From Chitinophagales bacterium (GTDB lineage Bacteria > Bacteroidota > Bacteroidia > Chitinophagales > JADIYW01): a stretch of DNA of 64,000 nucleotides. A model generated the notes under the pieces. It made no database searches, had not been told where the DNA came from, and saw nothing but the letters and a program-made list of their open reading frames with translations. Below are positions 2,646 through 39,019 of the stretch, piece by piece (the first letter of the stretch is position 1; each line of letters opens with the position of its first letter). The position numbers and the translations under genes are program-made. The stretch covers positions 1,202,151 through 1,266,150 of the forward strand of contig JACJXT010000011.1 in assembly GCA_020636535.1 (NCBI GenBank), given 5' to 3'.

Positions 2646-3074
2646 TTATACATACTGATTAAAAGCATCAATTAGTTTATCTGTCCAAGGAATAGATTGT
2701 TTGCCATTAGTAGCTACAATAATGCCTTCACCATGTGCTGCAATTTCATTATTTTTACTACAATTTTTTACCACATGATGTACTATTAAACTCGTATTAC
2801 CTACTTTTTTTATAGCAACGCTTATTTCAATCTCATTAGGATATTTTACTTCTCTAACAAAATTGCATTCTAGTTTGGCTACTACAATTTTTATTTGCTC
2901 AGCAGCCAACAGTTTCCAAATACCGCTTTCATTAAAAAAGGTAATTCTGCCAGTTTCAAAATATCTAAAATATTGTACATTATTAATGTGATTAAAAGCA
3001 TCCATTTCGCCCCAATAAACTTGCTGTTTTATAGGAAACGGAAATTGCAACTGGTCTAATTCTTGAATTTGCAT
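2646..3074 (-). CDS. acyl-CoA thioesterase (4HBT/YbgC-like hotdog fold)
   Basis: 142 aa. N-terminal VYWGEMDAFNHINNVQYFRYFE is typical of 4HBT thioesterases. Confidence 0.65.
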   Translation of the reverse strand: MQIQELDQLQFPFPIKQQVYWGEMDAFNHINNVQYFRYFETGRITFFNESGIWKLLAAEQIKIVVAKLECNFVREVKYPNEIEISVAIKKVGNTSLIVHHVVKNCSKNNEIAAHGEGIIVATNGKQSIPWTDKLIDAFNQYV

Positions 3075-3142
3075 GTGCGAAGATAAAAAAAATAGTCATT
3101 TGATTAATGATTACAAATACTCAAACAACTATTTTATAGAAT

Positions 3143-13770: not shown

Positions 13771-14340
13771 AGTTAAAACTATGCACTTTAGTGCATTTCG
13801 CTTTAGCTTCTAAAAATGTTTACTTTTGTAGTATGGAATACCAAAGGGTCAATGGTCATAGCATATCACGGCTTACAGTACATATTGTTTGGGCTACAAA
13901 ATATAGATATGCAGTATTGGAAGGAGATATAAAAGTAAGGTGTAGAAGTCTTTTGATGCAAATATGTGAAGCAGAAGATATTGTAATATTGAAAGGAGTA
14001 GTATCCAAAGATCATATTCATATGCATATAGAATATCGTCCATCACAATCAATAAGTAGCATGGTAAAATTATTGAAAGGACGCAGTTCACGAAAAATAC
14101 AGATAGAGTTTCCAGAGTTAAAGAAGAGATATTGGGGTCGTCATTTTTGGGCAATAGGTTATGGTTGCTGGAGTACAGGTAATATAACAGATGAAATGGT
14201 AAATGAATATTTAGAACATCATAGGAATCCAAATACGAACTCAAATGATAATTTTATAATTGAATAGAGAAGTACTGTCCGAAATAGGACTTTCAGTCCG
14301 TAACAAAACTATGGACTTTTAGTCCATAGTGGTTTATTTG
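13771..14340 (+). mobile_element. IS200/IS605-family insertion sequence, copy 2
   Basis: Same orientation and hairpins as copy 1. Identity with 1-570 ends exactly at ggtttatttg (14340 / 570). Confidence 0.85.
13833..14267 (+). CDS. tnpA: IS200/IS605 family Y1 transposase TnpA
   Basis: 4 aa differences from copy 1 (V/I, I/M, L/V, L/I). Same motifs. Confidence 0.85.
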   Translation: MEYQRVNGHSISRLTVHIVWATKYRYAVLEGDIKVRCRSLLMQICEAEDIVILKGVVSKDHIHMHIEYRPSQSISSMVKLLKGRSSRKIQIEFPELKKRYWGRHFWAIGYGCWSTGNITDEMVNEYLEHHRNPNTNSNDNFIIE

Positions 14341-16966: not shown

Positions 16967-18358
16967 ATGCAGATACAATTTTGTGGAGCAGCTAAAACAG
17001 TAACAGGTAGTTGTCATTTATTAACGCTAGATAATGGTAAAAAAATATTATTAGATTGTGGTTTATATCAAGGAAGTTCAATTGAAATGAGAGATTTTAA
17101 TAGTATATGGTATTTTAATCCTGCGGAAATTGATACCATTATATTGTCTCATGCACACATCGATCATTCTGGCAGAATTCCAAAATTGGTAAAAGATGGT
17201 TTTAGAGGAAAAATTTACTGTACTTCTGCTACACGAGATTTATGTGCTATTATGTTGTTAGATAGTGCTTTTATTCAAGAAAGTGAAGCTAGACAGCAAT
17301 CGAAAAGAGAACACAAAGAAATAAAACCATTGTATACAGAAGATGATGTGAAGCTAACCTTAAAACTATTTAGAACTGTAGAATATGATAAACATTTTTA
17401 TATAGAAAATAATGTAAAAGTTTGTTTTAGAGATGCAGGTCATATTTTAGGAAGTGCTACAGTTACACTAGATATTGAAACTGAAAATAAAAATATAAGA
17501 ATTGGTTTTACTGGAGATGTTGGACGATACGACAGACCTATTTTAAAAGATCCAACACCAATGCCAATTTGCGATTATCTTATTTCTGAGTCGACTTATG
17601 GTGGTGTAACACATGAAGAAAGTCCGGTAGAAAATGATAAGCTAGTAAAAATTATATATGAAACATGTATAGATAATAAAGGGAAATTAATTATTCCAGC
17701 TTTTAGTGTAGGAAGAACACAAGAAATTTTACATCGATTAGATCAATTAGAACACGATGGTATTTTGCCTAATATTCCAGTGTATGTAGATAGTCCGTTG
17801 GCAATAAATGCTACAGAAATTTTTAGAATACATCCAGAATGTATGGACGATGATATGCACAAATATATGTTGCACGATGATAATCCATTTGGTTGGAACA
17901 ATATGAAATATGTAAAAAATAGCGAACGATCTAAAGCAATTAATCAGTCAGATGAAGCTTGTATTATCATAGCAGCATCAGGAATGGCAGAAGCTGGTAG
18001 AGTGAAGCATCATATATTTCATCAAATAGAGAATGCAAACAATACTATTTTAATAGTGGGTTATTGTGCCGAAAATACACTAGGAGCTAAGTTGGTGAAA
18101 AAGCCAGATGAAGTTAAAATTTTTGGTATATTAAAAAAGGTAAATGCTAGAATTGAAGTTTTAGGTAGTATGAGTGCACATGCAGATACACCAGAACTAC
18201 TACGATTTTTTGAAAGTCAAAATAAAAGTAGCATGAAGCAATTTTTCTTAGTGCATGGCGAAGAAAAACGACAAGTACGATTGAAAAACATTTTAGAAGA
18301 ACAAGGATATCACGATATTGTTATTCCAGAGCTAGGAGAGAGTTTTGTTATTGAGTAA
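16967..18358 (+). CDS. MBL-fold metallo-hydrolase of the beta-CASP (RNA-metabolising) type
   Basis: HAHIDHSG zinc motif, a later DAGHILGS, SESTYG, and a C-terminal SAHAD...VHGE pattern as in beta-CASP nucleases. Confidence 0.8.
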   Translation: MQIQFCGAAKTVTGSCHLLTLDNGKKILLDCGLYQGSSIEMRDFNSIWYFNPAEIDTIILSHAHIDHSGRIPKLVKDGFRGKIYCTSATRDLCAIMLLDSAFIQESEARQQSKREHKEIKPLYTEDDVKLTLKLFRTVEYDKHFYIENNVKVCFRDAGHILGSATVTLDIETENKNIRIGFTGDVGRYDRPILKDPTPMPICDYLISESTYGGVTHEESPVENDKLVKIIYETCIDNKGKLIIPAFSVGRTQEILHRLDQLEHDGILPNIPVYVDSPLAINATEIFRIHPECMDDDMHKYMLHDDNPFGWNNMKYVKNSERSKAINQSDEACIIIAASGMAEAGRVKHHIFHQIENANNTILIVGYCAENTLGAKLVKKPDEVKIFGILKKVNARIEVLGSMSAHADTPELLRFFESQNKSSMKQFFLVHGEEKRQVRLKNILEEQGYHDIVIPELGESFVIE

Positions 18359-18367
18359 ATTACAGTC

Positions 18368-18932
18368 TTCCTTCTAAAAATCTATTAAATTATTTTTTAT
18401 AGTATATTTTACTATATTTATGCCATGGTTCGTGTCTCACGAAACAAATATGAAGTAAAAATTTTCGTAATAAATTTCTAATGCTTAGGTATATTCAAGC
18501 AATTTTTCTTAGTGCATGGAGAAGAAAAAAGACAAGTACTTTCTTCTAAAAATCTATTAAATTATTTTTATAGCATATTTTACTATATTTATGCCATGGT
18601 TCGTGTCTCACGAAACAAATATGAAGTAAAAATTTTCGTAATAAATTTCTAATGCTTAGGTATATTCAAGCAATTTTCTTTATTACACGGCGAAGAAAAA
18701 CAACAAGTACTTTCTTCTAAAAATCTATTAAATTATTTTTTATAGCATATTTTACTATATTTATGCCATGGTTCGTGTCTCACGAAACAAATATGAAGTA
18801 AAATTTTTCACAATAAGTTTCTAATACTTAGGTATATTCAAGCAATTTTCTTTATTACACGGAGAAGAAAAACAACAAGTACTTTCTTCTAAAAATCTAT
18901 TAAATTATTCTTTATAGCATATTTTACTATAT
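18368..18932. repeat. tandem array, 3 full units of 171-172 bp plus a terminal partial unit
   Basis: Units start at 18368, 18540, 18711 and 18883. Each unit has three parts. B (50 nt) is a copy of the last 14 codons, stop and 6 nt of the response-regulator gene. C (79 nt) carries the hairpin ttcgtg-tct-cacgaa. A (43 nt) is a copy of 18236-18278 inside the MBL gene. The last B is the real 3' end of 18889-19530. Confidence 0.9.
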
Positions 18933-19530
18933 CCAGAGTTGTGCTAACACCTAGTTTATCAAAGATTTTGTATTTGTGAGTGTCTACTGTACTCGTAGAT
19001 AGATTAAGCGTATTGGCAATTTCTTTGTACGACATACCTTCTGCAAACAGTCGTACTATTTCTAATTCTCTATCAGTAAGTATTTTGTCTTTATATAAAT
19101 TCGGATTGATATCTTGTTCTGCTTTAATATTTTGTATTTGTGCTACAATATCACTAGAAAAATAAGATTGATGATTTAATACAGTTGCTATAGCAATCAG
19201 TAATTCATCGTTAGAAGAAGATTTGCTTACAAAACCATCGAAACCAATTTTAGTACATTGTGCAAGCGTATGATCATCAGTAGAAGAGGAGAGTCCTATA
19301 ATTTTTATACTTAGATTGTCTTTTTTAATTTGTTTAGCAATATAAATACCAGAATCACCACCTAAACGAATATCTAATAATATAATATGTATTTCATTAT
19401 TGTTTAATGCATCTTCTAAAGCCATCAAATCACTAACCATTGCTATAACTTTGTATTGGCTACCTAAAAGCAATGCTTTAATTCCTTGTGCTACAATTTT
19501 ATGGTCTTCAACAATAATTACACTATACAT
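18889..19530 (-). CDS. LuxR/NarL-family response regulator (REC + HTH)
   Basis: REC domain (IIVEDH...ILLDIRLGGDSG...), then LTDRELEIVRLFAEGMSYKEIANTLNLSTSTVDTHKYKIFDKLGV. It starts 1 nt after the kinase stop. Confidence 0.85.
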   Translation of the reverse strand: MYSVIIVEDHKIVAQGIKALLLGSQYKVIAMVSDLMALEDALNNNEIHIILLDIRLGGDSGIYIAKQIKKDNLSIKIIGLSSSTDDHTLAQCTKIGFDGFVSKSSSNDELLIAIATVLNHQSYFSSDIVAQIQNIKAEQDINPNLYKDKILTDRELEIVRLFAEGMSYKEIANTLNLSTSTVDTHKYKIFDKLGVSTTLDIVKYAIKNNLIDF

Positions 19531-19531
19531 A

Positions 19532-21544
19532 TTACATATTGAAAATAATATAAAAATCGCTACCTTGTTTTATCTCACTGTTAAAACCAACATTAGCGTT
19601 CATTTTTTCTGCTAGCTCTTTACATAAAATCAAACCTAAACCAGTACCTTTTTCGCTAGAATTACCAACAGTGCTAGTATCTGCTTCTATATTAAAAATT
19701 TTTTGTTGGTCATTTTCACTAATACCAATTCCATTGTCTTTTACACCAACTTTAATTTTTTTATCATTTAAAATTTCAGAATATAATAAAATAGTACCAT
19801 TGTTTGGTGTAAACTTTATAGCATTAGATATATAATTTCGTATAATAGTTTCAATTATATTATCATCTATATTGGCTTGTATGGTATTGTCAATAGTATT
19901 ATTGATAGTAATGTTCTTTTCTGCTGCATTGTATTGAAGTGCATCAACTGCTTTTTGACTTATAGGTAAAATTGCTTGTTCTTGAAGATTAACTTTTATA
20001 TTATTGGTTTGCGATAAAGACCATTTTAGCATATTTTGTAGTAGTTCAAATAGTTTGTTAGAGGAATCATTTATTGTAAGCAGAAATTCATTAATTTCTT
20101 CTTTAGATAAATTGAATATTTGTTTTTGTAATGCATTAGTGATATTTCTAAAAGCAGACAATGGATTTTTTAAATCGTGAGCTACTATAGAAAAGAGTTT
20201 GTCTTTTGTAGCATTAAGTGTTTTTAATTGTTGATTTTTTTCTTGTAGTATAGCATTGGTCTCTGTTTTAAATTGATTGCTTTTTCTAAGTACATTTACT
20301 AGATATAGAAGTAGTAAAGAAAGTAATGCAATAGCAATTAAAATAATCATATTGCGTTTTAACTTACTTTGTTTTAATAGGTTGTCTTTTTCTAATAAAT
20401 TAATTTGTGTTTCTTTTTTTTCTGTTTCATAGTATTCATCTAAGTAATAAATGTCAGAAGCTAATGCAGCATTGGCAATAGAGTCTTCTATGGTTTTGTA
20501 TCTTTTATAATACTCCAAACTTAATTTATAGTTTTCTTTGTCATTATTCAATAAATATAAATTGTATAGATTGTCTTTTAATCCATCATAATCTTCAAAA
20601 GCTTCTAATGCATTCTTACATTTTAATAAATATTGTTCAGCAGTAGAAAACTCTTTTTTAACTCTATAAATATTGCCTTTAATATCGTAGCAATAAGCTA
20701 AAGCAAAATCATCATTAATAGATCTAAAATAATTAATAGCCGAGTCAATATATTGATTCGCTAAATTTATTTGATTGGTTTCTGCTAAAAAGTTAGCATA
20801 ACTAATATAAGTGTTATTTAATTTATAAGTAAAATCACTTTTTTTGTCTAAGGTCATACTTTTATCAAAGTATTTTTTTGCATTTGAATAATCTTTGCTT
20901 TCTAAATAATTTATAGACAAATTATTTAATAGACTACTTTTTATAGAAGGAATACTAGCAACAGCTAAACCTTTTTTAATATATTTATTAGAAGTTTCGT
21001 ATTGTTTTAAATTAGCATAGTTAATACTTAAACTATTATAAAAATAAGGCAGCACTTCTGCATTTATACTGTCTTTATGTTGTTCGTAATATTTTATAGC
21101 ATCTAATAAGTATTTGCTAGATAACTTATAGGCACTTAAATCAGAATAGGTTAAACCAAGATCACCTAAAATACTGGTAATTTTTAAATGGTCATTAATT
21201 GCATAAGCAATATCAAGTGCTCTATTAAAATATACTAAAGCAGAATCTTGTTTCTCTAACGATACAAAAGCGAGACCTTTAGTTCTAAGTGCTACACAAT
21301 TTTGAAATGAATTTTGCTTTAATTTATTGATTTTAAAAATATTATTTATAATAATAATAGAAGAATCAGGATTATATTTCCAATACAGCTCTGCTAACTT
21401 TAATTGTGCATCAATTTTCTTATCTGTTGATTTACTTTGCCGAATAACTTTATTCAAGCTATCAATTGTAGTATTAGCATTTAATTGTGAACTAAATAAA
21501 CAAAAAAGTAAAAACCATATGTAGTTTAACTTCAAAGATTTCAA
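19532..21544 (-). CDS. sensor histidine kinase with extracytoplasmic TPR-like repeat domain
   Basis: Signal peptide, ~370 aa of TPR-like repeats, one TM (MIILIAIALLSLLLLYLV), the H-box FSIVAHDLKNPL, and N and G boxes (GTGLGLILCKELAEKM). Apparent TTG start. Confidence 0.85.
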   Translation of the reverse strand: MKSLKLNYIWFLLFCLFSSQLNANTTIDSLNKVIRQSKSTDKKIDAQLKLAELYWKYNPDSSIIIINNIFKINKLKQNSFQNCVALRTKGLAFVSLEKQDSALVYFNRALDIAYAINDHLKITSILGDLGLTYSDLSAYKLSSKYLLDAIKYYEQHKDSINAEVLPYFYNSLSINYANLKQYETSNKYIKKGLAVASIPSIKSSLLNNLSINYLESKDYSNAKKYFDKSMTLDKKSDFTYKLNNTYISYANFLAETNQINLANQYIDSAINYFRSINDDFALAYCYDIKGNIYRVKKEFSTAEQYLLKCKNALEAFEDYDGLKDNLYNLYLLNNDKENYKLSLEYYKRYKTIEDSIANAALASDIYYLDEYYETEKKETQINLLEKDNLLKQSKLKRNMIILIAIALLSLLLLYLVNVLRKSNQFKTETNAILQEKNQQLKTLNATKDKLFSIVAHDLKNPLSAFRNITNALQKQIFNLSKEEINEFLLTINDSSNKLFELLQNMLKWSLSQTNNIKVNLQEQAILPISQKAVDALQYNAAEKNITINNTIDNTIQANIDDNIIETIIRNYISNAIKFTPNNGTILLYSEILNDKKIKVGVKDNGIGISENDQQKIFNIEADTSTVGNSSEKGTGLGLILCKELAEKMNANVGFNSEIKQGSDFYIIFNM

Positions 21545-21599: not shown

Positions 21600-21646
21600 T
21601 AGTGAAAAATCACTATGGTACAAAAAGAAGCATCATTATACCTTTA
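21600..21646 (+). promoter_or_regulatory. island cis element P1: palindrome TAGTGAAAAATCACTA + fixed-distance CTTTA
   Basis: Perfect 6-4-6 inverted repeat at 21600-21615. CTTTA at 21642-21646, 28 nt after the T of TATGG. 22 nt lie between CTTTA and the ATG at 21669. The site sits in the divergent region shared with the kinase gene. Confidence 0.6.
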
Positions 21647-21668
21647 CATTAACAAAAACAAAAACATT

Positions 21669-22130
21669 ATGAAAACAATCACATTCATTTTAGTTAGCTT
21701 ACTAGGTTTTGCTAGCTACGCACAAGACAACTTTGCTTTTTATCAAGCACAACACAACAACAGTTCGTATCAAAATCAAATGGTAACCATTTATGATATA
21801 GCTGATGCGTCGTTATTAAAATCTACTATTGATTTTAGTAATAAAGAACAATCGTACAAAAATTTTATCGCAAAGAATTACAACGAAACAAGTATTCAGT
21901 TTTATGTAAATACTTTAGACCAAAATGTAGGTATTGATATTAAAGGCAATCAACTAAACCATTACATTACTAAAATTATGGATGCTAATGGAGCTGTACT
22001 ATCTCAATTACCAGCAACTGATAATTTAAATGCAAAGCTATGTACTAAAAATTGGGACAAAGGTACTTATCTCATTCAAATTGTAGATACTAACTATGAG
22101 GTACTAGCAACAGCAATGGTAGAAAAATAA
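21669..22130 (+). CDS. small secreted protein with probable T9SS C-terminal sorting domain
   Basis: Signal peptide MKTITFILVSLLGFASYAQ (I use the ATG at 21669, not 21615). The C-terminus ...KGTYLIQIVDTNYEVLATAMVEK resembles the type A CTD of 24586-25062. Confidence 0.6.
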   Translation: MKTITFILVSLLGFASYAQDNFAFYQAQHNNSSYQNQMVTIYDIADASLLKSTIDFSNKEQSYKNFIAKNYNETSIQFYVNTLDQNVGIDIKGNQLNHYITKIMDANGAVLSQLPATDNLNAKLCTKNWDKGTYLIQIVDTNYEVLATAMVEK

Positions 22131-22159
22131 CAAGAGTTCTTTATGTATCAACCTTTTTT

Positions 22160-22189
22160 GAGAGGTATTATATAATGCCTCTCTTTTTT
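22160..22189 (+). terminator. rho-independent terminator after 21669-22130
   Basis: gagaggtattatataatgcctctc near-perfect palindrome followed by a tttttt run. Confidence 0.6.
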
Positions 22190-22284
22190 AAATTATATTA
22201 TTTCTATAGATAAATTTTCATAGTTTTTGGTGAGTAGTCTTATTAATGTTCTAAAATATTTTTAGGACTGCTTTTTATAAAAAT

Positions 22285-22331
22285 TAGCGAAAAAATACTA
22301 TGGAATATTTATTTAAAAACAATCAACTTTA
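22285..22331 (+). promoter_or_regulatory. island cis element P2
   Basis: TAGCGAAAAAATACTA (degenerate, 5-nt spacer) at 22285-22300. CTTTA at 22327-22331, the same 28-nt offset from TATGG. 33 nt to the ATG at 22365. Confidence 0.5.
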
Positions 22332-22364
22332 AATTATTAATCAATAAATAAAAACAAAAAAATC

Positions 22365-22808
22365 ATGAAAAATATAATTAAAATTACGCTACTACTTTTT
22401 GCATGTACTTTACTACTAAATGCTTGTAAAAAAGAAAACATCATTTTTAAAAATGAGTTTATGCACACTTGGTATCTTCAAAAATATGAAGAAAATGGAG
22501 TAGACAAAACACAAGAGTTTGACTCAGTTTACCATAACTATACGCTAACATTTGATAATGTAAAAAACTATGCTACAGATGAATATGATGATATTTTTAT
22601 AGAATCTTTTTATCATCACGGAACATTGTTCGTAGAATATTATGGCTTTTTTCAGTTCTTACGACCAGACAAACTAAAGCTACAATATAGTGGTAGTACA
22701 TATAATACAAAAGCATTTACAATAGAATTTGTAAACAAAGGTAGCGACGAATTTATCATCAATGAGGTGAGTGGTATTACTACCAAACGCTATTCCTTTA
22801 GAAAATAA
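22365..22808 (+). CDS. hypothetical lipoprotein
   Basis: Signal peptide with lipobox LLNAC. 147 aa, beta-rich. No motif recognised. Confidence 0.5.
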   Translation: MKNIIKITLLLFACTLLLNACKKENIIFKNEFMHTWYLQKYEENGVDKTQEFDSVYHNYTLTFDNVKNYATDEYDDIFIESFYHHGTLFVEYYGFFQFLRPDKLKLQYSGSTYNTKAFTIEFVNKGSDEFIINEVSGITTKRYSFRK

Positions 22809-22872
22809 ATATTCAAATATAAGATAATATAAAATATTTTTTACCGACATAAAGAAGCGTAAAAAGTAAAAT

Positions 22873-22919
22873 TAGCGAAAAATTACTATGGTAAAGTCGT
22901 ATAGCATTTATAAGCTTTA
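22873..22919 (+). promoter_or_regulatory. island cis element P3
   Basis: TAGCGAAAAATTACTA at 22873-22888. CTTTA at 22915-22919 (same offset). 27 nt to the ATG at 22947. Confidence 0.5.
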
Positions 22920-22946
22920 TACTATTATAAATTTAAACAAAAAATT

Positions 22947-24575
22947 ATGAAAACAATTTTAAAAACAAGTTTCTTTTTAGTGGTATTATTAATTACTACA
23001 ACTATTGTAGCACAAACACCACAATCATTCTCTTATCAAACTGTAATAAGAGATAACACAGGTAATCCATTAGCTAATCAAAGTATAAGCTTAAAAATAA
23101 GTATACTAAAAGGAGAATCAAATGGAACTACTGTTTATTCAGAAACACATAATAAAACAACTAATGCTTTTGGGTTAGTCAATTTAAATATTGGAGATGG
23201 TAGTGTTGTAAGTGGCAACTTTGCTAACATTAATTGGGGAAACGACATCTATTTTGTTAAAACAGAATTAGATGCTACTGGTGGAAACAATTTTACAGTA
23301 ATGGGCGTGCAACAGTTATTATCAGTTCCTTATGCATTACATGCCAAAACTGTAGCAATAGATAATGTAAACGATGCAGATGCCAATCCAACAAATGAAT
23401 TACAAGATTTATCTTTCAATAATTCAACTGGAGTATTAAGTATTAGCAACGGAAATTCTGTTACATTACCAACAACTTCTGGTGGTGATAATTGGGGAAC
23501 ACAAACCGTACAACACAATACAACACTAAGTGGAAACGGAACAACAGCAAGTCCATTACAAGTGGTAGGCGATTTAACCGACGACCAAACACTTTCATTG
23601 AGTGGGAATAACTTATCTATTAGCGGAGGAAATTCAGTTAATTTAAATAGTATAGATAATCAAATACTTACATTAAGTGGCGATAATTTAACTATAAGTA
23701 ATGGTAATACTGCAAATTTAAGTAGTATCGATAATCAAACGCTTTCGTATAATAGCGTATCTGGTCAGTTGAGTATTGTTAATGGAAATAGTGTTACCAT
23801 TCCATCTTCTGCGGATAATTGGGGTAGTCAAACAGTACAACACAATACAACACTAAGTGGAAATGGAACAACAGCAAGTCCATTACAAGTGGTAGGCGAT
23901 TTAACTGATGATCAAACACTTGCACTAAGTGGAAATACCTTAAGTATAAGTGACGGAAATAATGTAGATATGTCTGGTATATCATCTTTTATTTATAGAC
24001 AAATAAATTTAGATCCAAGTTATCCTGAGTTAGATGATGTCAATCAAATTGTATACTTAAATGGTACTACAAGTACAGTAGCACTGCCTTCAGATCCAAC
24101 AATAGGTAGAATTGTATATTTAACTTCCTCTGCTTCTGCAACTAAAATTTCATCGAACGGTAAAGCTTTACGAAAAGATGGAACTACTTATTTAGGAGAT
24201 ACTATTATTACTATGCAAAATTTAGCTAATGGAACTGGAATAATTGGTTTAATATATACAGGCAATCAATGGATGCTATTTTCTAATGAATCAAATGCTG
24301 GATTGAAAACTAAAGTTCAAGGTAAAGTAGATGCAACTGGTTTTGCAGGAGCATTCTATGTTTCTAAACCTGTTGTTGGTACTAAGGTCAGTACTGGCAC
24401 TTATAGATTAAGTATAGATTCAGAAAATATGAATATATATAACTGCATGGTAACTACAAAAACAGAAGGAACAATTGCATCCGTTTCTAATAGTGCAGAC
24501 TATATAACTATTTATATATATGATATATTTACAAATTTGAAAGTAGATTCTGAATTTAATTTTATCCTATATTAA
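22947..24575 (+). CDS. secreted repeat protein (fibre/adhesin-like), function unknown
   Basis: Signal peptide. Multiple short D(N/D)QxLSLSGNxLSISxGNSVxL-type repeats. A ~109-aa internal duplication. No T9SS CTD seen. Confidence 0.55.
   Translation: MKTILKTSFFLVVLLITTTIVAQTPQSFSYQTVIRDNTGNPLANQSISLKISILKGESNGTTVYSETHNKTTNAFGLVNLNIGDGSVVSGNFANINWGNDIYFVKTELDATGGNNFTVMGVQQLLSVPYALHAKTVAIDNVNDADANPTNELQDLSFNNSTGVLSISNGNSVTLPTTSGGDNWGTQTVQHNTTLSGNGTTASPLQVVGDLTDDQTLSLSGNNLSISGGNSVNLNSIDNQILTLSGDNLTISNGNTANLSSIDNQTLSYNSVSGQLSIVNGNSVTIPSSADNWGSQTVQHNTTLSGNGTTASPLQVVGDLTDDQTLALSGNTLSISDGNNVDMSGISSFIYRQINLDPSYPELDDVNQIVYLNGTTSTVALPSDPTIGRIVYLTSSASATKISSNGKALRKDGTTYLGDTIITMQNLANGTGIIGLIYTGNQWMLFSNESNAGLKTKVQGKVDATGFAGAFYVSKPVVGTKVSTGTYRLSIDSENMNIYNCMVTTKTEGTIASVSNSADYITIYIYDIFTNLKVDSEFNFILY
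23487..23977 (+). repeat. internal direct duplication inside 22947-24575
   Basis: About 165 nt starting at 23487 (gataattggggaacacaaaccgtacaacacaat...) recur at 23814, an offset of 327 nt, with few substitutions. Confidence 0.8.
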
Positions 24576-24585
24576 ACTAAAAAAC

Positions 24586-25062
24586 ATGAAAAATATACTA
24601 TTTATAATCATATTTTTATTTACTATTAAAGCTTACACACAAGAAGTAATTGCTACAACTGGAAATCATTATAGCAATACCAATTATAGCATGAGTTTTA
24701 CTATTGGCGAACCTATTATTACTACTTATACTACTAGTAATATTATAATGACACAAGGTTTTCATCAAACAAAATTGACAGATATTGCTAGTTTTATTAA
24801 AAACTTTTATAGTGATGCGACTATTAGTGTGTTTCCAAATCCAGCAGTAAACAGTGTACAAATTAATTTGAAGAGTGATAAACTAATTCAATACAAAACC
24901 AATGTATATGATATTAGTGGAAAATTAATTTACCAAACAGCATTATTAAATGCCACTCAACAACAAATAGAAGTTAGTCATTGGTCTGTTGGTACTTATA
25001 TTATACAAGTAGTCGATGATAAAAACCAAGCACTAGCAACTGCAAAAATTATTAAACAATAA
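24586..25062 (+). CDS. small T9SS C-terminal-target-domain protein
   Basis: Signal peptide. The GEPIITT...MTQGFHQ motif is common in small Bacteroidota secreted proteins. Clear type A CTD: VFPNPAVNSVQINL...GTYIIQVVDDKNQALATAKIIKQ. Confidence 0.75.
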   Translation: MKNILFIIIFLFTIKAYTQEVIATTGNHYSNTNYSMSFTIGEPIITTYTTSNIIMTQGFHQTKLTDIASFIKNFYSDATISVFPNPAVNSVQINLKSDKLIQYKTNVYDISGKLIYQTALLNATQQQIEVSHWSVGTYIIQVVDDKNQALATAKIIKQ

Positions 25063-25066
25063 AATT

Positions 25067-26104
25067 ATGAAAAATATATTTTTATTAGTTATGATTTTGT
25101 TGAGTACTCAATTTGTAATTCAAGCAGAAGAAAATCAAGTGTGCGAAAAACAAATGGCAACACTTTATAACGAACTGTCTGATATTGATGGCATAAGCAA
25201 TATTTATGAAGAAAATAAAAGTGATTACGACTATTACGAGTTGCGAGATCAATACATTACTATTATAGATAATTGTAATTATGGCGACATATGTAAAAAC
25301 GATAAACTTTTTGCCAGACACTTATTTTGGTCGCAACTCTATTTAGCTAATTTGGCATTAGAAGCAGAACGATTTGGTGAAGCTGAACAATTTATTACCA
25401 ATACTTTAGATAATTATAGACTAATTAATAATGATATAGCATTAACTGAAGATGAAAAAAAAGAAATTTTTACTATACAAAATAATGCCATTGATTTACT
25501 TAAAATGTATAATACAAATGCAGATGTAAATTATATGATTAATACAATGTATATCAATGCAAAAAACTATACAGATAATAGCATTTTTACAGATGTTGGT
25601 TTGTCATGTGTCAATATGAAATTACCAACAAGCGTTCCTTTTTCTAAATTAATGAATATAAAATCAGTATTTAGTAATGATGATATGCTTTTATTAGATG
25701 ATTATGCAATGTATATTATTAAAAATAAAATTTATGAATATACTTCTGTCGATTTATCTTATAAAGAAGTACTAGTATATACTTTGGTTTATAGTGCTTT
25801 TAATAAAATACAAAACAATTCATTAGATAGTGTTGCTCAATATATTCAACCATTAAACGAAATTTGTGTTGGTTTACCTTATATGTTTCCAGCAATCACT
25901 TCTGTTTACTTATTTCAAATCGAATATTATTTACAACAAAAAGATTATTTAAAAGCATATTCATTTTTAAGTCAAATTATATTGTATTTTAATTATTTCG
26001 ATGCAGAAAAATACGAGTTAGATTTAATTAAAAACTACATTTTTAGCAATTACAATCTCTGTGTAGAAAAGCTCAACAGAAAGGATTTAATCACTAATAA
26101 ATAA
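25067..26104 (+). CDS. secreted hypothetical protein (paralog of 26111-27178)
   Basis: Signal peptide ending with AEEN. The C-terminus ...QQKDYLKAYSF...NYNLCVEKLNRKDLITNK aligns with the next gene. Confidence 0.5.
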   Translation: MKNIFLLVMILLSTQFVIQAEENQVCEKQMATLYNELSDIDGISNIYEENKSDYDYYELRDQYITIIDNCNYGDICKNDKLFARHLFWSQLYLANLALEAERFGEAEQFITNTLDNYRLINNDIALTEDEKKEIFTIQNNAIDLLKMYNTNADVNYMINTMYINAKNYTDNSIFTDVGLSCVNMKLPTSVPFSKLMNIKSVFSNDDMLLLDDYAMYIIKNKIYEYTSVDLSYKEVLVYTLVYSAFNKIQNNSLDSVAQYIQPLNEICVGLPYMFPAITSVYLFQIEYYLQQKDYLKAYSFLSQIILYFNYFDAEKYELDLIKNYIFSNYNLCVEKLNRKDLITNK

Positions 26105-26110
26105 AATATT

Positions 26111-27178
26111 ATGAAATACTTATGCTTACTATTTAGCTTGATTTGTATAAATACTTATGCAGAAGAAAATTCGTATAACGATTGCTTTGCAAAGATAGGT
26201 CTACTTCATGAAGAAGTGTTGTATAATTTAGCACACAACGATCCAGATTTTCCAGAATACTACAAAGGTGTTTATGCAAACCAAAATTATTTAAACTACG
26301 ATTCACTATTAATACTTTACAATAAAACATATAAAACTTGCATATTTGTAGATGAAGTAAATTCAATTGCTGAATACAAAGATTATATGTTTCAACTACA
26401 AATAGATTTAGGAAATCTATCTATCATTAACAAAAACTATAAAAATGCATTATTAATTTTAGATAGAAATTTTGTTTTACTAGACCATTTAAATCAAGAT
26501 GACCTATTTAATGAAGAAGCATTATTCGATTTTTTTGAATATTATATTAATTGTTTAACAGCAAAAGATACTAGTACTTATGTTGACCAATATGAAGTGC
26601 AAATACTTGAAAAACTAATACAGTATGTAGATAAAATTCAAATAGATAATAAAATAAAACTCAAAGCAGAAGTTTTAAATTTAATTTGTAGATATATATC
26701 ACAAATAAAAACATTTAACCTTAATAAACTACATGATGTTAATAGTAATTATTCAAATTTTGAACTTACTTTTTTTAATAACTATGCACAATTTATTATA
26801 GATAATAATTTAATTGCTTACGATTACGACAATTATGACTACTACACAGCAATAGCTTTTCCATTCATTATAAATGCACAAAAAGCACTACAAAATAAAG
26901 ATATAAAAACAGCAGAAAACTACATACACTATTTTGATAAATTGAGTATTGCAGGAAAATATTTAAGAATACCAATTAATTATATATATATTACTTATGC
27001 TGATTATTATATTCAACAACAAGATTATTTAAGTGCTTTTATTTATATAGGTACATTTGTAAAATATGCATATCTATTTAAAAATGCTGGAGATATTGCT
27101 ACTTATAATTATCTAATAGACAATTATAATTTCTGTGCAGAAAAGCTCAACAGAAAAGATTTACTACTACAAAAATAG
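26111..27178 (+). CDS. secreted hypothetical protein (paralog of 25067-26104)
   Basis: Signal peptide ending with AEEN. The C-terminus ...QQQDYLSAFIY...NYNFCAEKLNRKDLLLQK. Confidence 0.5.
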   Translation: MKYLCLLFSLICINTYAEENSYNDCFAKIGLLHEEVLYNLAHNDPDFPEYYKGVYANQNYLNYDSLLILYNKTYKTCIFVDEVNSIAEYKDYMFQLQIDLGNLSIINKNYKNALLILDRNFVLLDHLNQDDLFNEEALFDFFEYYINCLTAKDTSTYVDQYEVQILEKLIQYVDKIQIDNKIKLKAEVLNLICRYISQIKTFNLNKLHDVNSNYSNFELTFFNNYAQFIIDNNLIAYDYDNYDYYTAIAFPFIINAQKALQNKDIKTAENYIHYFDKLSIAGKYLRIPINYIYITYADYYIQQQDYLSAFIYIGTFVKYAYLFKNAGDIATYNYLIDNYNFCAEKLNRKDLLLQK

Positions 27179-27222
27179 CGAAAAATCACTATGGTATATC
27201 CAATCAAAAACATTCAACTTTA
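27176..27222 (+). promoter_or_regulatory. island cis element P4
   Basis: TAGCGAAAAATCACTA at 27176-27191 (one mismatch from a perfect palindrome). It overlaps the stop codon of 26111-27178. CTTTA at 27218-27222. 30 nt to the ATG at 27253. Confidence 0.55.
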
Positions 27223-27252
27223 AACTATTACAAAACAATTAAAACAAAAATT

Positions 27253-27903
27253 ATGAAAACAATTATTAAAATCGCAATGTGTTTATCTTTCTTTCTTGTA
27301 CTAAGCTGTACTAAAGATAACGAAGTAACACCAGAAGAAAACCAACCAATTCAACCAACAGAAACAACAACTTATACTATAAAACCATTTCAAAGTTTAT
27401 GGACAGATAAACAAGAAATACAACAAGTTGCCAATATGCATGTTGCAGGTAGTTACGAAGCTGGTAATCTGTTGTACTTTACTACATCAGGTAAAATTAC
27501 TCAATTAGGTGTTTTTGCTGGTGAAGCAGGTAAATTTAGAGTTACTCTTTGGGATGTAACTACGCAATCTGTTATTCGTTCTATACTTATAGATGCACCA
27601 ACTGCTAACAATACTTATTATGCTAATATAGATGCAGTTGATGTTATAGCAAATAAACAGTATATTTTATCAACTAATAATAAAAACTTTGAAGATAATA
27701 CTACAACTACACAACCTTACATTTATAAATTAGAAAACGGAGAACGAGTTTATGATCCAATCTATCCAATTACTTATGATAAAGTTACTTATATAAATGC
27801 AGTAGAAAAAGTTGGAGATGCTTTAAGTTATCCAACACCAAGTTCATTAGTTAATAATAAATTTATGGGTGTACCAGATTTAGTTTTTGTATATGAAGAA
27901 TAA
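27253..27903 (+). CDS. hypothetical lipoprotein
   Basis: Lipobox LVLSC. 216 aa. No motif I can name with confidence. Confidence 0.5.
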   Translation: MKTIIKIAMCLSFFLVLSCTKDNEVTPEENQPIQPTETTTYTIKPFQSLWTDKQEIQQVANMHVAGSYEAGNLLYFTTSGKITQLGVFAGEAGKFRVTLWDVTTQSVIRSILIDAPTANNTYYANIDAVDVIANKQYILSTNNKNFEDNTTTTQPYIYKLENGERVYDPIYPITYDKVTYINAVEKVGDALSYPTPSSLVNNKFMGVPDLVFVYEE

Positions 27904-27921
27904 CTAAGTAAACATTTTCCT

Positions 27922-27949
27922 CGCAGAGTCTCTCTTAGAGGACTCTGCG
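27922..27949. repeat. GTCTCTC-loop hairpin element
   Basis: cgcagagtc-tctcttagag-gactctgcg, a 9-bp stem right after the stop of 27253-27903. No T-run follows. Homologous to 40402-40427. Confidence 0.6.
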
Positions 27950-27978
27950 AAATCTGAAACAACTAAAAACAAAAAATC

Positions 27979-28470
27979 ATGAAAACAATTAAAATACTAA
28001 GTTTGCTTTTTTCTACGATACTATTTGTACATCAAAGTTTTGCAGGAAACAAACTCAATGAAGACATCTTTCTAGGAACATTAAATCGTAATGAATTTAA
28101 TAGCACTATTAATTTTATGATACTAGCCGATAGTAAATTAAATTTTGTAGTAGGAGATACTTTAGATTTATATCGCTTAAATATAACTTATAATGATAAA
28201 TCAAGTCAAGAAGAAGTGGAAACCTGTTGGCAAAATAATATAGCTAATAAAAATCAAAGTAAAATAGCAAGAGTACGAATCACAGGTTTCAATCAAAATA
28301 TAATTTTTATTACATTAATAAGAGATTATTTTTTAAATCTTAAGCCAACAAGCCATTATTTTAATTATCAAATACTATTTGAAAAACCTATTTTTTTCAA
28401 TGCACAACAAGCAAAAGAAGTAAATCAAATGTATAATAATTTAAAAAAACCATTATTAAAAAAACCATAG
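27979..28470 (+). CDS. secreted hypothetical protein
   Basis: Signal peptide (...HQSFAG). 163 aa. Confidence 0.45.
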   Translation: MKTIKILSLLFSTILFVHQSFAGNKLNEDIFLGTLNRNEFNSTINFMILADSKLNFVVGDTLDLYRLNITYNDKSSQEEVETCWQNNIANKNQSKIARVRITGFNQNIIFITLIRDYFLNLKPTSHYFNYQILFEKPIFFNAQQAKEVNQMYNNLKKPLLKKP

Positions 28471-28474
28471 AACT

Positions 28475-29110
28475 ATGAAAAATACAATTTTAATCTTAGT
28501 AATTATTGCAACTATAGTAAGTTGCACAAAAGAAAACAATACAACAAACACTACACCATTACCAACACCACGCGATTTAAAAATTCGTTCTAACGATGTA
28601 TTAGATACAGTCCGACAAATCTTTTACATTGATGTCCCAAACCAAATAGCAGAAACACAAGGTCTAATAGATGAATATGGTAGTTCTATGTTTTCTATGA
28701 CAGCTATTTTTATAACAGCTCTACAACGCTATCAAACCAATAAAAGTATAGGCATTAAAGATGTAATAGCTTGTTGTCATACTACGCTACTCATTAATTC
28801 ATCAAGTGCAGACAGCTACAATGGCTACGATTTAACTTCTGGCGGAAAAAGTACACTCAGCACACAAATTTCAAGCTATCCAAAAACACCATATATTTAT
28901 ATGAAAGGTGCAACACCAAGCAATAACTATACACCAACACTACCAATTACTATCGAAATGTATGCCGATCCAATAAATACAACAACTACATATGCTAAAA
29001 TATTTATTTACACACAAGGAGCAGACTCACCACGACCATTACATTTAAAGAAAGAAAATGGCATTTGGAAAGTATCTAACTTTAGTAGCTTATTAACAGG
29101 TTATAGATAA
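28475..29110 (+). CDS. hypothetical lipoprotein
   Basis: Lipobox IVSC. 211 aa. Confidence 0.5.
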   Translation: MKNTILILVIIATIVSCTKENNTTNTTPLPTPRDLKIRSNDVLDTVRQIFYIDVPNQIAETQGLIDEYGSSMFSMTAIFITALQRYQTNKSIGIKDVIACCHTTLLINSSSADSYNGYDLTSGGKSTLSTQISSYPKTPYIYMKGATPSNNYTPTLPITIEMYADPINTTTTYAKIFIYTQGADSPRPLHLKKENGIWKVSNFSSLLTGYR

Positions 29111-29123
29111 ATACATCATAGAT

Positions 29124-29161
29124 AATATTGTCAAAGTTTTAAACTTTGACAATATTTTTAT
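29124..29161 (+). terminator. strong rho-independent terminator after 28475-29110
   Basis: aatattgtcaaagttt / aaactttgacaatatt arms of up to 16 bp, followed by ttttta. Confidence 0.7.
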
Positions 29162-29172
29162 ATGCTCTGTAC

Positions 29173-29234
29173 ATCAATGTTCTACAAAGTGGATATTGAT
29201 GTTTCCCAACTAGAATAACACAAAAACTGCGTAG
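29173..29234 (+). repeat. about 62-bp direct repeat, copy 1
   Basis: atcaatgttctacaaagtggatattgatgtttcccaactagaataacacaaaaactgcgtag. It contains a stem acatcaat/attgatgt. It recurs at 29497-29560 with a few changes. Confidence 0.8.
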
Positions 29235-29428
29235 GTGTATGATTTTTCCTATAATTAAATAGTTTGTCTTTTAATGAATAATATTAAAAAATAATTATTG
29301 GCTAAAGAAGCGTAGGAAGAAAAAATGCGGCAGCTGAGCGTAGGCAATAAGCGTGGAGCGATCATTTTTTCTTGACTTTTTTGTTACTTTTTGTGTCAAG
29401 ACAAAAAGTAAAATTAAAATCTATGCCT

Positions 29429-29449
29429 TGTTTCGTGTCTCACGAAACA
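29429..29449 (+). repeat. copy of the cgtgtctcacg hairpin element
   Basis: tgtttcgtg-tct-cacgaaaca, a 9-bp stem. The flanks (ctatgcc...aata) match the copies in the 18.4-18.8 kb array. Confidence 0.75.
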
Positions 29450-29496
29450 ATACTTTTGTGTCATGTCAAGTGTTTTCCACTTGACAACTTACTTAA

Positions 29497-29560
29497 ATCA
29501 ATATCTCACAAAGTGGATATTGATGTTAGCCAATACTAGAATAACACAAAAACTGCGTAG
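29497..29560 (+). repeat. about 62-bp direct repeat, copy 2
   Basis: atcaatatctcacaaagtggatattgatgttagccaatactagaataacacaaaaactgcgtag. Confidence 0.8.
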
Positions 29561-29850
29561 CAGTTTATAATTAATATTGAGTAATAGCATTGTAAACAAA
29601 GTCTAATATCTAATAATCTTGATTCTAGAAATCTTACAACAAAAAGTCTTATTACTCACTACTATTTACCTAAATACTACAAAAAAAACTGACCGTTTAA
29701 TGATATCGGTCGGTGTCCTCACCGAAAGAAATATTATTTAACTATAGCCAAATCTATATAAAATATCATTCCTTCAAAAGAAGGAATCTATAAATTTATT
29801 CAATATTGGTTTTTTTATGTTATGACAAATTATTGAGATGCTACACCATA

Positions 29851-29867
29851 TTTCGTGTCTCACGAAA
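29851..29867 (+). repeat. copy of the cgtgtctcacg hairpin element
   Basis: tttcgtg-tct-cacgaaa with conserved flanks (ctacaccata ... caaatat). Confidence 0.75.
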
Positions 29868-30044
29868 CAAATATTATAGTACTCTTGTATTAAATAAAAT
29901 CTTAATATATTTATTTATTCGTTCTAAAATTGACCGTTCACTCAATATTTCGTCCGTTCACTCATTATTTTTGACTTTCTATATATAATCGTCTAAGTTG
30001 CAAAAGATATAAACGATTTATTATAATGAATCATTTTTAAATAA

Positions 30045-30091
30045 TAGTGAATTTTCACTATGGTATAAAACGCTTCACTTATTGAACTTTA
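30045..30091 (+). promoter_or_regulatory. island cis element P5 (in front of the giant gene)
   Basis: Perfect inverted repeat TAGTGA-ATTT-TCACTA at 30045-30060. CTTTA at 30087-30091 (same 28-nt offset). 22 nt to the ATG at 30114. Confidence 0.6.
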
Positions 30092-30113
30092 TACCAAGCA
30101 AAATTATAAAACT

Positions 30114-38147: not shown

Positions 38148-38152
38148 TAACA

Positions 38153-39019
38153 ATGAATAAAAAGTATTTAATAATAGCATTGTTTTTATTTCTTTTTGCT
38201 ACTTTAAAAAGTCAAGAATTACCACAAATAAAATCAATTACAGTTTTGGCAGATAAAGCAATGTATCATACTCAAGGTTTTCAAGTGCAAATAATTTTTA
38301 CTAAGTCATTAAGCACTTATATAACTGAATTCAATAATGCACCATTGCAAATAGAAGTATATCCAAAATATAGAAAAAAGAAAAATAAATTTGTGAGAAT
38401 TGAAAATCCTAAATGGTTTGATGATTTACGAAACTCATTTAGTATCAGTAGAATTACTTCTGATACAGCAGTAATAGATTTCTCTTATATTAATTTTACA
38501 CAATTTTCAAATAAAAATATAGACCTTCTATTTGATGTTGAACTCAAACAGTCTGATTATAAAAATCCATTAAATAATAAGTATTTTGTGTTAGATGCTA
38601 GTAATCAAATTGTAAACAGTGTGGCAATTCCAAAATTATATAATTTAAATTTATTAGTTAATGAATATAATGTTTCAAAAATTAATACCGATGTAAAAAT
38701 TTTGGGTTATGGCAACAAAAAACCAGATTCCTATTTTATTATAAAATATCCTGCATTTCAAGAATTTAAATCAAAGGTTTTTAAAAATACACTTCAAGTA
38801 GAAAATACTGAATCTAGTAATGGTACACTTACATCAAACGATTCAATAAAAATTCTATTTTATGATAGAGATAAAATAACATTTGATGATTTTTTAGATA
38901 AATATGAGTTTTCTATAAATGAATTGCTGTTAAATAAATCTTCAGTTATAAATGTTAACTTAGATGCTATTAATAACTTGGAGATAACATACACTATAAA
39001 AGAAGCAACAAAAAAGTAA
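38153..39019 (+). CDS. secreted hypothetical protein
   Basis: Signal peptide (...ATLKSQE). Starts 5 nt after the giant gene's stop. Confidence 0.5.
   Translation: MNKKYLIIALFLFLFATLKSQELPQIKSITVLADKAMYHTQGFQVQIIFTKSLSTYITEFNNAPLQIEVYPKYRKKKNKFVRIENPKWFDDLRNSFSISRITSDTAVIDFSYINFTQFSNKNIDLLFDVELKQSDYKNPLNNKYFVLDASNQIVNSVAIPKLYNLNLLVNEYNVSKINTDVKILGYGNKKPDSYFIIKYPAFQEFKSKVFKNTLQVENTESSNGTLTSNDSIKILFYDRDKITFDDFLDKYEFSINELLLNKSSVINVNLDAINNLEITYTIKEATKK

Follow-up and report, generated by a model that had tools for sequence, protein, structure and literature searches.

How do pieces of two convergent genes come to be repeated, in tandem, in the space between them? The question is raised by a locus in the metagenome-assembled genome (MAG) of a Chitinophagales bacterium, where a gene for a beta-CASP/MBL-fold hydrolase (MBL) and one for a response regulator (RR) run towards each other. 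The window referred to below is the whole 64,000-nucleotide stretch analysed around this locus, and its features are collected in Table 1. Tandem Repeats Finder delimits a single array, 18367-18932 (period 172, 3.3 copies, 95% matches, 0 indels, score 1013), and the 64-kb window holds no other non-coding array of comparable size. Together with the repeat register, this bears out the original prediction that 18236-18932 reads A-X-(B-C-A)x3-B (period 171/172, identity 95%), assembled from pieces of both flanking genes and a hairpin element. The hairpin, TTCGTG-TCT-CACGAA, is found in each C copy. The repeats are contiguous, like segments being separated by 122-129 nt; the junctions B|C, C|A and A|B are identical across all three units, and every A copy runs into B, never into an X-like gene end. 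Neither the 172-nt unit nor the 80-nt C occurs beyond the array in the 64-kb window. The sole ORF within the array spans 46 aa and has no record in the collection searched. The starts of X and B share an exact 11-nt inverted match, which is too short to support a model.

Table 1. Features of the array locus and of related sequences (window coordinates)
Feature	Position	Strand	Description
MBL gene (beta-CASP/MBL-fold hydrolase, 463 aa)	16967-18358	+	Pfam Beta-Casp 1e-38, Lactamase_B, RMMBL; contains A0, ends in X
MBL source segment of M1 (apparent)	18106-18175	+	Collinear alignment of 18448-18496
A0	18236-18277/8	+	Inside MBL gene; resident source of A copies; encodes KQFFLVHGEEKRQV
X	18279-18366	+	Final 80 nt of MBL gene plus 8 nt; lacking from array units
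B1	18367-18417	+	Copy of regulator-gene 3' end, 16 nt from MBL stop; would encode IVKYTIKNNLIDF*
C1	18418-18496	+	H palindromic element (18420-18449) plus M1 (18450-18496)
A'	18497-18538	+	2 differences from A0, both synonymous
Unit 2	18539-18709	+	B2 18539-18588 (1-nt deletion), C2 18589-18667, A'' 18668-18709
Unit 3	18710-18881	+	B3 18710-18760, C3 18761-18839, A''' 18840-18881
B4	18882-18932	-	Working regulator 3' end: 7-nt flank, stop codon, last ~14 codons
RR gene	18889-19530	-	Convergent with MBL gene; full length against homologs
NarL/LuxR-type RR (213 aa) and TPR histidine kinase (HK, 670 aa)	18889-21544	-	Pfam Response_reg and GerE; HisKA and HATPase_c; intact
H copy outside array	29423-29452	+	Palindrome match
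H copy outside array	29845-29872	+	Palindrome match
PAP2-SDR-methyltransferase block	54848-56812	-	Former downstream neighbours of MBL, now inverted, 38 kb off
MatE-methyltransferase spacer	56813-56842		Marks the other breakpoint together with the PAP2-SDR-methyltransferase block

The MBL gene is intact, being full length against 120 homologs, and its C-terminus is orthologous in L001 and further homologs; when GTDB genomes were scanned by peptide pattern for the MBL protein, no relative emerged. Segment B specifies the final helix of the GerE domain in its canonical form; regulator orthologs end in ...VKYAIKNNLIEL*. Segment A corresponds to the region of the conserved FLVHGE motif in MBL. The A copies do fall into two types, as originally described: A' lies close to A0, and A'' (which reads FSLLHGEEKQQV) and A''' are more divergent, although the earlier figure of about 8 of 43 differences for these two was slightly high, the measured values being 6 and 7 of 42 as against 2 for A'. 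The suggestion that they stem from a diverged MBL allele is not supported. Both encode S and L where F is found in 102/105 and V in 105/105 homologs (FLVHGE to SLLHGE), and it is because these invariant or nearly invariant residues are changed that A'' and A''' are classed as decayed copies rather than pieces of a working diverged allele.

Divergence is unevenly distributed along the units. C1 and C2 are exactly alike and C3 differs at 5/79 positions; between units 1 and 2, A differs at 8/42 positions and C at 0/79 (Fisher p = 1.3e-4). The array is thus no simple recent slippage product, in agreement with the original prediction, which had also read it as accreted junctions of repeated events; the three units share one junction set and do not represent independent events. 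Five of the six differences between A0 and A'' are clustered in 11 nt, which resembles one multi-base event rather than steady decay. A search across the window for a donor of the A''-type block found none. Templating of this block by a quasi-palindrome, from GTAATAAA in M1, was judged a weak candidate by eye and by folding: no more than 8 bp pair, with no complementarity in the flanks.

Segment C is bipartite: it consists of a palindromic element of ~30 nt, here called H, and of a right half that, as judged from alignment, is probably derived from the MBL gene upstream of A and since decayed. The stretch 18448-18496 aligns with MBL 18106-18175 with a score of 39.75, at about the 99.9th percentile of a window-chunk null; this is a post-hoc alignment, with p about 0.001-0.002. 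The flanks of other H copies do not match this part of MBL. H itself reads GCCWTGG-TTCGTG-TCT-CACGAA-ACAA, with a stem of 6-8 bp, a loop of 3 nt and the 5' flank GCCTTGG. Three copies lie in the array, all on one strand, 171-172 nt apart and without alternation, and each occupies the exact join of the regulator-derived and MBL-derived pieces. A search of the 64-kb window for further C elements gave a divided answer: the H core recurs twice, for a total of five copies, and C as such is found nowhere else. The repeat beside H at 29432 is a member of a separate repeat family of that intergenic region. A likeness between B and the flank of a hairpin at ~29.75 kb (just above the 99th percentile) was judged due to chance, because B is fixed by the conserved C-terminus of the regulator.

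In other genomes, the exact 19-mer of H has 25 matches, spread over 25 genomes and all in Bacteroidota, against ~4 expected over the whole collection. The flank CCTTG[GT], which was absent from the 19-mer query, is conserved at 17/25 of them. Nearly all are intergenic, and some fall within operons, for example in the rpsJ/rplC spacer. By its distribution, H is an interspersed, Bacteroidota-wide family of intergenic palindromes. No Rfam family corresponds to it, and literature searches yielded no papers for the H hairpin sequence and nothing specific on duplications with REP elements at their join-points.

The gene order around the array has itself been altered. The ancestral order 155aa-MBL-MT-SDR-PAP2 (MT, methyltransferase) is kept in L007-L012; the present genome has its orthologs of MT, SDR and PAP2 on the minus strand (56812-54872). 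More distant relatives have the methyltransferase gene next to MBL, an adjacency that is interrupted here precisely at the MBL stop codon; a rearrangement placed MBL and the regulator tail to tail. In the closest relative, synteny likewise runs to the MBL stop codon and is followed by different DNA, with a 57-nt x 3.5 tandem array of a different hairpin element, GTCATTCTGAGC...GAAGAATC, that contains no gene fragments. Since this relative nevertheless has the MatE-MT junction in common with the present genome, the 3' boundary of MBL has been broken at least twice, in line with the earlier view that it was rearranged more than once. Regulator orthologs, 61-67% identical, have different downstream neighbours. 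A single 38-kb inversion is not proven. The region of the second breakpoint (56.4-57.3 kb), compared with 18200-18960, contains no array-like sequence and no similarity above chance. A scheme that puts the inversion breakpoint inside MBL and makes A|B the primary junction was rejected: it would place X beside MT at 56.8 kb, where X is not found.

The reading that we favour, and hold with fair confidence, takes the array to be a non-coding minisatellite made unstable by recombination, the scar of a local duplication at a recurrent rearrangement breakpoint. The primary junction would have been A-X-B-RR, with the two stop codons 16 nt apart. A tandem duplication of a short segment over both gene ends (from about MBL 18106 through B) would then have followed, with a copy of H at the join; it would have been neutral, leaving one intact copy of each gene, because its ends fall within both convergent genes. 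The redundant copy may subsequently have decayed, a deletion at the imperfect microhomology AGT(A)C removing X and a further ~80 nt disappearing from within the MBL fragment, to give the 172-bp unit. Unequal crossing-over would have expanded this unit to three copies, and unequal crossing-over or gene conversion would keep reshuffling the variants. Such ongoing reshuffling may account for the identity of C1 and C2 while A' differs from A''. The array requires no function; at most, the H hairpins would act in a REP-like manner on the 3' ends of both transcripts. The closeness of A' to A0 calls for a recent origin, or for conversion over just 42 nt of homology. That a copy of H sits exactly at the join is left unexplained by the duplication model.

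Evidence of exchange comes from a second strain (L038), which is ~99.8% identical across the RR/HK flank. Its C is of the C1/C2 type (0/55 differences, as compared with 5/55 to C3), and its A is a hybrid that combines the 5' haplotype of A' with the 3' haplotype of A''' and is followed by B4. The array thus differs between near-identical strains through exchange among units. The mosaic of A types would be explained by such exchange, L038 carrying exactly a recombinant of this kind. This second-strain evidence spans 148 nt and, together with one genome, forms the basis of the order of events given above. For genomes 92-99% identical to the present one, the Logan samples SRR20002566 and SRR29564162 were the nearest encountered. 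A scan of JGI metagenomes for the A|B junction gave 0 matches. Two data sets bear on the assembly. The k=31 Logan contigs of SRR12358676 stop at window positions 18400 and 18880, which are the sites where B1- and B4-specific k-mers become shared k-mers, and the independent NCBI contig of the second strain, JAGQIA010001120.1, reads C-A-B4-RR.

Alternatively, H or the whole of C may be a small mobile or nick-prone element of the REP/MITE kind, whose insertion or processing yields the flanking duplication and the tandem copies. The agent would be a Y1/HUH enzyme or stalling of the replication fork, and the array a 'transduplication' of neighbouring gene ends. The interspersed distribution of H and its position at the regulator/MBL join would fit, as would the different hairpin array of the closest relative at the same MBL boundary and the presence of two IS200-like Y1_Tnp transposase genes in the window. 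These IS200-like elements were nonetheless rejected as a source of H, their terminal hairpins being unrelated to it. Direct repeats flank H neither at the 25 loci in other genomes nor at the 29852 copy, no target-site duplication is visible, and the array of the closest relative is devoid of gene fragments. We consider this explanation, including the proposed agents, rather unlikely. It is tempting to speculate more generally that Bacteroidota palindromes, such as H and the element of the closest relative, make a gene's 3' boundary a recurrent breakpoint and seed the tandem 'capture' of neighbouring gene ends: H is positioned precisely at the join, and the broken MBL boundary bears a hairpin array in two lineages, a different one in each. 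This idea is doubtful as it stands; if true, hairpins would drive rearrangement and give rise to new 3' gene sequence.

The array could also be kept for a function, either as a bidirectional insulator or a set of hairpins that stabilize mRNA 3' ends, or as silent A/B cassettes that recombine with MBL or the regulator. H is unchanged in all three units (0/34, against 5/45 in the rest of C3, a difference that is not significant), it is found inside operons elsewhere, as between rpsJ and rplC, and the array unit folds slightly better than shuffled sequences (z about -2.1 to -2.3). Against this, terminator-like sites are absent from the array, promoter-like sites are not above the level of shuffles, and an Rfam search at gathering and E-value thresholds found nothing credible, the best match reaching 24 bits where the gathering score is 80. 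As for cassettes, an exchange between A0 and an A copy would remove the conserved C-terminus of MBL, and the B variants are synonymous, carry one A-to-T change (Ala to Thr) or are frameshifted. With an array that also differs between near-identical strains, maintenance for function seems improbable.

Still less can be said for the original proposal of integration by an island. On this reading, an island that entered and left the MBL 3' end several times by site-specific recombination would have left the units behind as att-type junctions, and it would bring along a diverged surrogate 3' end in the manner of prophage e14 at icd. In its favour, the gene-internal segment A is directly repeated downstream of the gene in two haplotypes, and the boundary is a synteny breakpoint. 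Among the Pfam-scanned window ORFs of at least 120 aa, however, there is no integrase or recombinase, only IS transposases (Y1_Tnp, DDE_Tnp_1); GC content is uniform, at 23-34% throughout; and the genes between the two breakpoints include the housekeeping genes folP, polyprenyl synthase and shikimate kinase. The short distance between repeats leaves no room for a bracketed element, the junctions are the same in all units, an X-like gene end is lacking after every A copy, and A'' and A''' disrupt invariant or nearly invariant residues. The proposal is very improbable and largely refuted. Finally, an assembly artefact in which strain variants were collapsed or expanded in a long-read MAG is scarcely credible, even though two A haplotypes could mean mixed strains: on either side, the SRR12358676 contigs end exactly at the onset of the repeated k-mers; the independent assembly, that of L038, has the same C|A and A|B4 junctions; and its hybrid A is no de Bruijn chimera, because only ~12 nt are shared between the variant sites.

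Among known systems, the favoured minisatellite reading brings the array closest to bacterial minisatellites or VNTRs such as MIRU. The locus displays head-to-tail units with shared junctions, variation between strains, and a non-coding character with intact flanking genes. As in these systems, the units measure tens to hundreds of bp, lie between genes and overlap gene ends; unequal exchange alters them, and they vary among close strains. A two-component system adjoins here as well; the first description of MIRU repeats, reportedly by Supply et al. in 1997, came from the senX3-regX3 two-component operon of Mycobacterium. Unlike MIRU, which are dispersed over many loci, the 172-bp unit occupies a single place in the window and draws its pieces from the two genes beside it.

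Like the enterobacterial REP/BIME elements, which are often found at 3' ends and between convergent genes, H is a short palindrome dispersed in intergenic regions, although it has no sequence relationship with them and its copies in the array are all direct instead of alternating. REP-associated tandem duplications, said to have been described by Shyamala, Schneider and Ames in 1990, resemble the present case in having a palindromic element at the join-point. The classical REP duplication arises when two REPs already in place recombine, whereas the other end of the segment duplicated here carries no H. Integrating elements, too, are known to duplicate gene 3' ends, as e14 does at icd and islands do at tRNA/tmRNA genes. 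Here, as at icd, a partial, diverged copy of a gene 3' region forms a direct repeat downstream of the intact gene; in contrast to icd, there is no integrase, bracketed element or surrogate gene end, and the tandem copies include the 3' end of the neighbour. The locus also recalls the staggered-break model described for Drosophila inversions, in that pieces of genes are copied where a rearrangement broke the DNA and the genes themselves stay intact. That model would leave inverted copies at both ends of the inverted segment, whereas the 56.8-kb breakpoint has no array-like or inverted copy.

The array would then be a structural curiosity, in which a neutral duplication across convergent gene ends has decayed to a minisatellite that keeps recombining; it also dates and locates two or more rearrangements of a single gene boundary. 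Of wider interest is the Bacteroidota-wide palindrome H, which marks a breakpoint here and is present inside ribosomal-protein operons elsewhere. In practical terms, the array could serve as a strain-typing marker for this uncultured Chitinophagales lineage, and it carries a warning in that short-read assemblies break at it. A fragment of the array locus was encountered binned into a 'Romboutsia' MAG.

The array between the convergent genes for the beta-CASP/MBL-fold hydrolase (MBL) and the NarL/LuxR-type response regulator (RR) consists, as the original prediction described it, of pieces of both genes and a hairpin in the order A-X-(B-C-A)x3-B. This layout comes from reading the sequence directly and from the repeat registers. 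Tandem Repeats Finder places one array here, at 18367-18932 (period 172, 3.3 copies, 95% matches, score 1013), the remaining large arrays of the window being coding repeats of the 2677-aa DUF285 protein. Segment B codes for IVKYAIKNNLIDF, the final helix of the GerE domain, and a stop; RR orthologs (61-67% identical) terminate in ...VKYAIKNNLIEL and a stop. B is genuine regulator sequence, and A, which reads KQFFLVHGEEKRQV, is genuine MBL sequence. Since the MBL and RR proteins carry consecutive accessions, no gene is annotated between them. Over its first 22 nt (18280-18301), X shows 75-77% complementarity to the beginning of B (18369-18390, likewise in the other B copies), and 11 nt at the core pair exactly (TTTTAGAAGAA / TTCTTCTAAAA). 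X and B1 could therefore fold into a long, imperfect hairpin that surrounds the stop codon of MBL.

Features of the array and of the genes that flank it
Feature	Position	Strand	Description
MBL gene	16967-18358	+	full-length beta-CASP hydrolase
A0	18236-18278		resident MBL piece, before X
X	18279-18366		end of MBL gene, directly after A0
B1	18367-18417		unit 1
C1	18418-18496		unit 1
A'	18497-18538		unit 1
B2	18539-18588		unit 2
C2	18589-18667		unit 2
A''	18668-18709		unit 2
B3	18710-18760		unit 3
C3	18761-18839		unit 3
A'''	18840-18881		unit 3
B4	18882-18932		closes array; end of RR gene
RR gene	18889-19530	-	full-length NarL/LuxR-type, ends in B4; its TPR histidine kinase follows

The genome is a Chitinophagales MAG with the locus on a 2.15-Mb contig, and an assembly artefact had been envisaged as a refutation; two lines of evidence speak for a real array. 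Logan short-read contigs (k=31, SRR12358676), 100% identical to the window, end at 18400 and 18880, where the last B1- and B4-specific k-mers yield to k-mers common to the B copies. Moreover, an independent NCBI contig from a second strain, JAGQIA010001120.1, differs from the window at 2 positions over ~1.2 kb of RR and kinase sequence and continues 104 nt beyond the RR stop codon in the order ...C-A-B4. The array is real. This 1372-nt contig (GCA_020431585.1), 99% identical to the Chitinophagales locus, was almost certainly misbinned, as it sits in a 'Romboutsia sp.' MAG.

Divergence varies strongly along the unit. Between units 1 and 2, C is identical (0/79 differences) and A differs at 8/42 positions (Fisher p = 1.3e-4); between units 2 and 3 the differences number 5/79 for C and 1/42 for A. 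The earlier view that the array is not simple slippage was thus right, and exchange among units, which explains this mosaic, is directly supported by the second strain because it carries a unit 1/unit 3 recombinant. Beside B4, its C agrees with C1/C2 (0/55 differences) and not with C3 (5/55), and its A joins the 5' haplotype of A' to the 3' haplotype of A''', the expected product of unequal crossing-over or gene conversion between units 1 and 3. A de Bruijn assembly chimera is ruled out for this hybrid, since the variant sites lie just ~12 nt apart.

The divergence of A'' and A''' from A0 had also been noticed correctly, although the count of about 8 in 43 becomes 6 and 7 of 42 positions, respectively. 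The proposal that they represent a diverged MBL allele does not hold. Both carry S and L in place of the F and V of the FLVHGE motif, residues kept in 102/105 and 105/105 homologs, which marks them as decay products. A' shows two changes from A0, both synonymous; at one of them A' has AGA, as does the closest relative. Five of the six A'' differences are packed into 11 nt (18678-18688, and likewise 18850-18860; TCTTAGTGCAT to CTTTATTACAC), which suggests one multi-base event; these differences act as one haplotype block in the second strain, and no donor for the block was found anywhere in the window. TTTATTAC, the sequence that results, has its complement in GTAATAAA, which lies 39 nt further upstream within unit 2.

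Segment C has two parts. Its left ~30-34 nt (H) have the hairpin core TTCGTGTCTCACGAA, of which the window contains five copies (three in the array, then 29432 and 29852; ~0.02 expected by chance), and a profile built from all H copies matches these five alone in a window search. A search of the GTDB genome collection for the 19-mer TTCGTGTCTCACGAAACAA gives 25 exact hits, where chance would yield ~4 across all phyla. All 25 lie in Bacteroidota (Chitinophagaceae, Ferruginibacter, Cytophagales, Pedobacter, Marivirga), nearly all of them intergenic and without fixed orientation to adjacent genes; CCTTG[GT], outside the query, directly precedes 17 of them. Given this distribution, H belongs to a family of small intergenic palindromes that extends across the phylum. 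An Rfam search yielded no family for H, and the hairpin sequence is absent from the literature searched. In five MAGs assigned to different taxa (L018, L023, L026, L033, L034; e.g. L023 3784-3802) H lies between rpsJ and rplC, on the sense strand 41 nt upstream of rplC, with near-identical flanks (L026 one base off); there it may serve the S10 operon as an RNA-level element. The right 47-49 nt of C (M1) are collinear in three blocks with MBL 18106-18175, the segment just upstream of A (score 39.75, ~99.9th percentile of other window chunks and attained by 0.2% of shuffles); sequences following the two non-array H copies give no M1 match (30.0 and 20.5). This is suggestive of M1 having been copied from MBL. 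Each unit may thus be read as B, H and a decayed, internally deleted MBL 3' fragment (M1 + A).

The array lies at a synteny breakpoint. Two lineages (MBL 68-69% identical) have the order 155aa(-), MBL, methyltransferase, SDR, PAP2, with 1-6 nt between MBL and methyltransferase; the window orthologs of the last three lie at 56812-54872 on the minus strand. Gene order thus shows an inversion-type rearrangement, one breakpoint falling at the MBL stop codon and the other within the 30-nt spacer that separates MatE from the methyltransferase. The closest relative (MBL protein 91% identical; 86% nucleotide identity) is collinear to the MBL stop codon. Right after it, at the same breakpoint, lies a 57-nt x 3.5 tandem array (2928-3125) with a different hairpin element, GTCATTCTGAGCCATGCGAAGAATC, and without gene fragments, then unrelated genes. 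A second contig from the same sample shares the window's MatE-methyltransferase-SDR junction. Because this junction is common to both while the DNA after MBL differs, the MBL/methyltransferase break is older than the split of the two lineages, and at least one later rearrangement took place at the MBL 3' boundary in one of them. The original prediction of recurrent events at this boundary is borne out by synteny.

A-X-B1 looks like the primary rearrangement junction, since it is the tightest, with 16 nt between the two stop codons. A tandem duplication with ends inside both convergent genes would keep one intact copy of each and would therefore be neutral. It may have covered everything from ~MBL 18106 to B inclusive, H marking the join, and so have given A-X-B-H-[M1...A-X]-B-RR; X would then have dropped from the redundant copy at imperfect microhomology (...CAAGTAC / ...ACAGTC), and loss of ~80 nt inside the MBL fragment would have left the 172-bp unit, of which unequal crossing-over would have made three. 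Alternatively, H itself may have driven the duplication. Its position exactly at the join and the other hairpin array at the same place in the relative would fit this, but the 25 H loci of other genomes show no flank duplications. An inversion breakpoint inside MBL was rejected since X is missing from the other breakpoint, as was a staggered-break duplication, there being no copy at 56.8 kb.

With regard to function, the array contains no terminator-like sites and no recorded ORF, its promoter-like sites do not exceed the frequency seen in shuffles, and it folds only weakly better than these. We commit to an array without selected function; H could still exert a REP-like effect on the 3' ends of transcripts. 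The array behaves like a bacterial minisatellite (VNTR) derived from local duplication and, like the MIRU repeats of senX3-regX3, combines sequence from gene ends with a position next to a two-component system. It does not belong to a dispersed repeat family, the likeness of its hairpin to REP elements is confined to distribution, and it lacks every defining feature tested of att-site duplication by integrative elements.

While the observation behind the original prediction is confirmed, its interpretation is partly supported; it fails on the diverged allele and on the integration of an island. None of the window's scanned ORFs (120 aa or longer) is an integrase, GC is uniform (23-34%) and housekeeping genes lie between the breakpoints; nothing here points to an integrated island. 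The only mobile-element genes among the scanned ORFs encode two IS200-like Y1 transposases and one DDE transposase. The IS200-like elements (1-560 and 13771-14330) are 98% identical, encode a 158-aa Y1 transposase and have terminal hairpins of their own (ATGCACTTTAGTGCAT and ATGGACTTTTAGTCCAT), unrelated to that of the array. The DDE transposase gene (41464-43074) lies between 351-nt perfect direct repeats (40973-41323 and 43155-43505), with a third, partial copy 2.4 kb further on (45940-46136, 197 nt, 96%); the repeats could reflect either a tandem duplication (2182 bp, 1.16 copies) or the insertion of an IS into repeated sequence. Beside the kinase/regulator pair, 21615-40371 holds a cluster of T9SS-tailed (Por_Secre_tail) and unannotated proteins, including the 2677-aa protein with its 16 DUF285 repeats. 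Upstream of this DUF285/T9SS protein, a 1-kb gene-free stretch (29110-30114) is dense in different small palindromic repeats, namely H, present twice, a ~70-nt element that also occurs twice and ends in ...ACACAAAAACTGCGTAG, and the hairpins TCGGTGTCCTCACCGA and ATTCCTTCAAAAGAAGGAAT.
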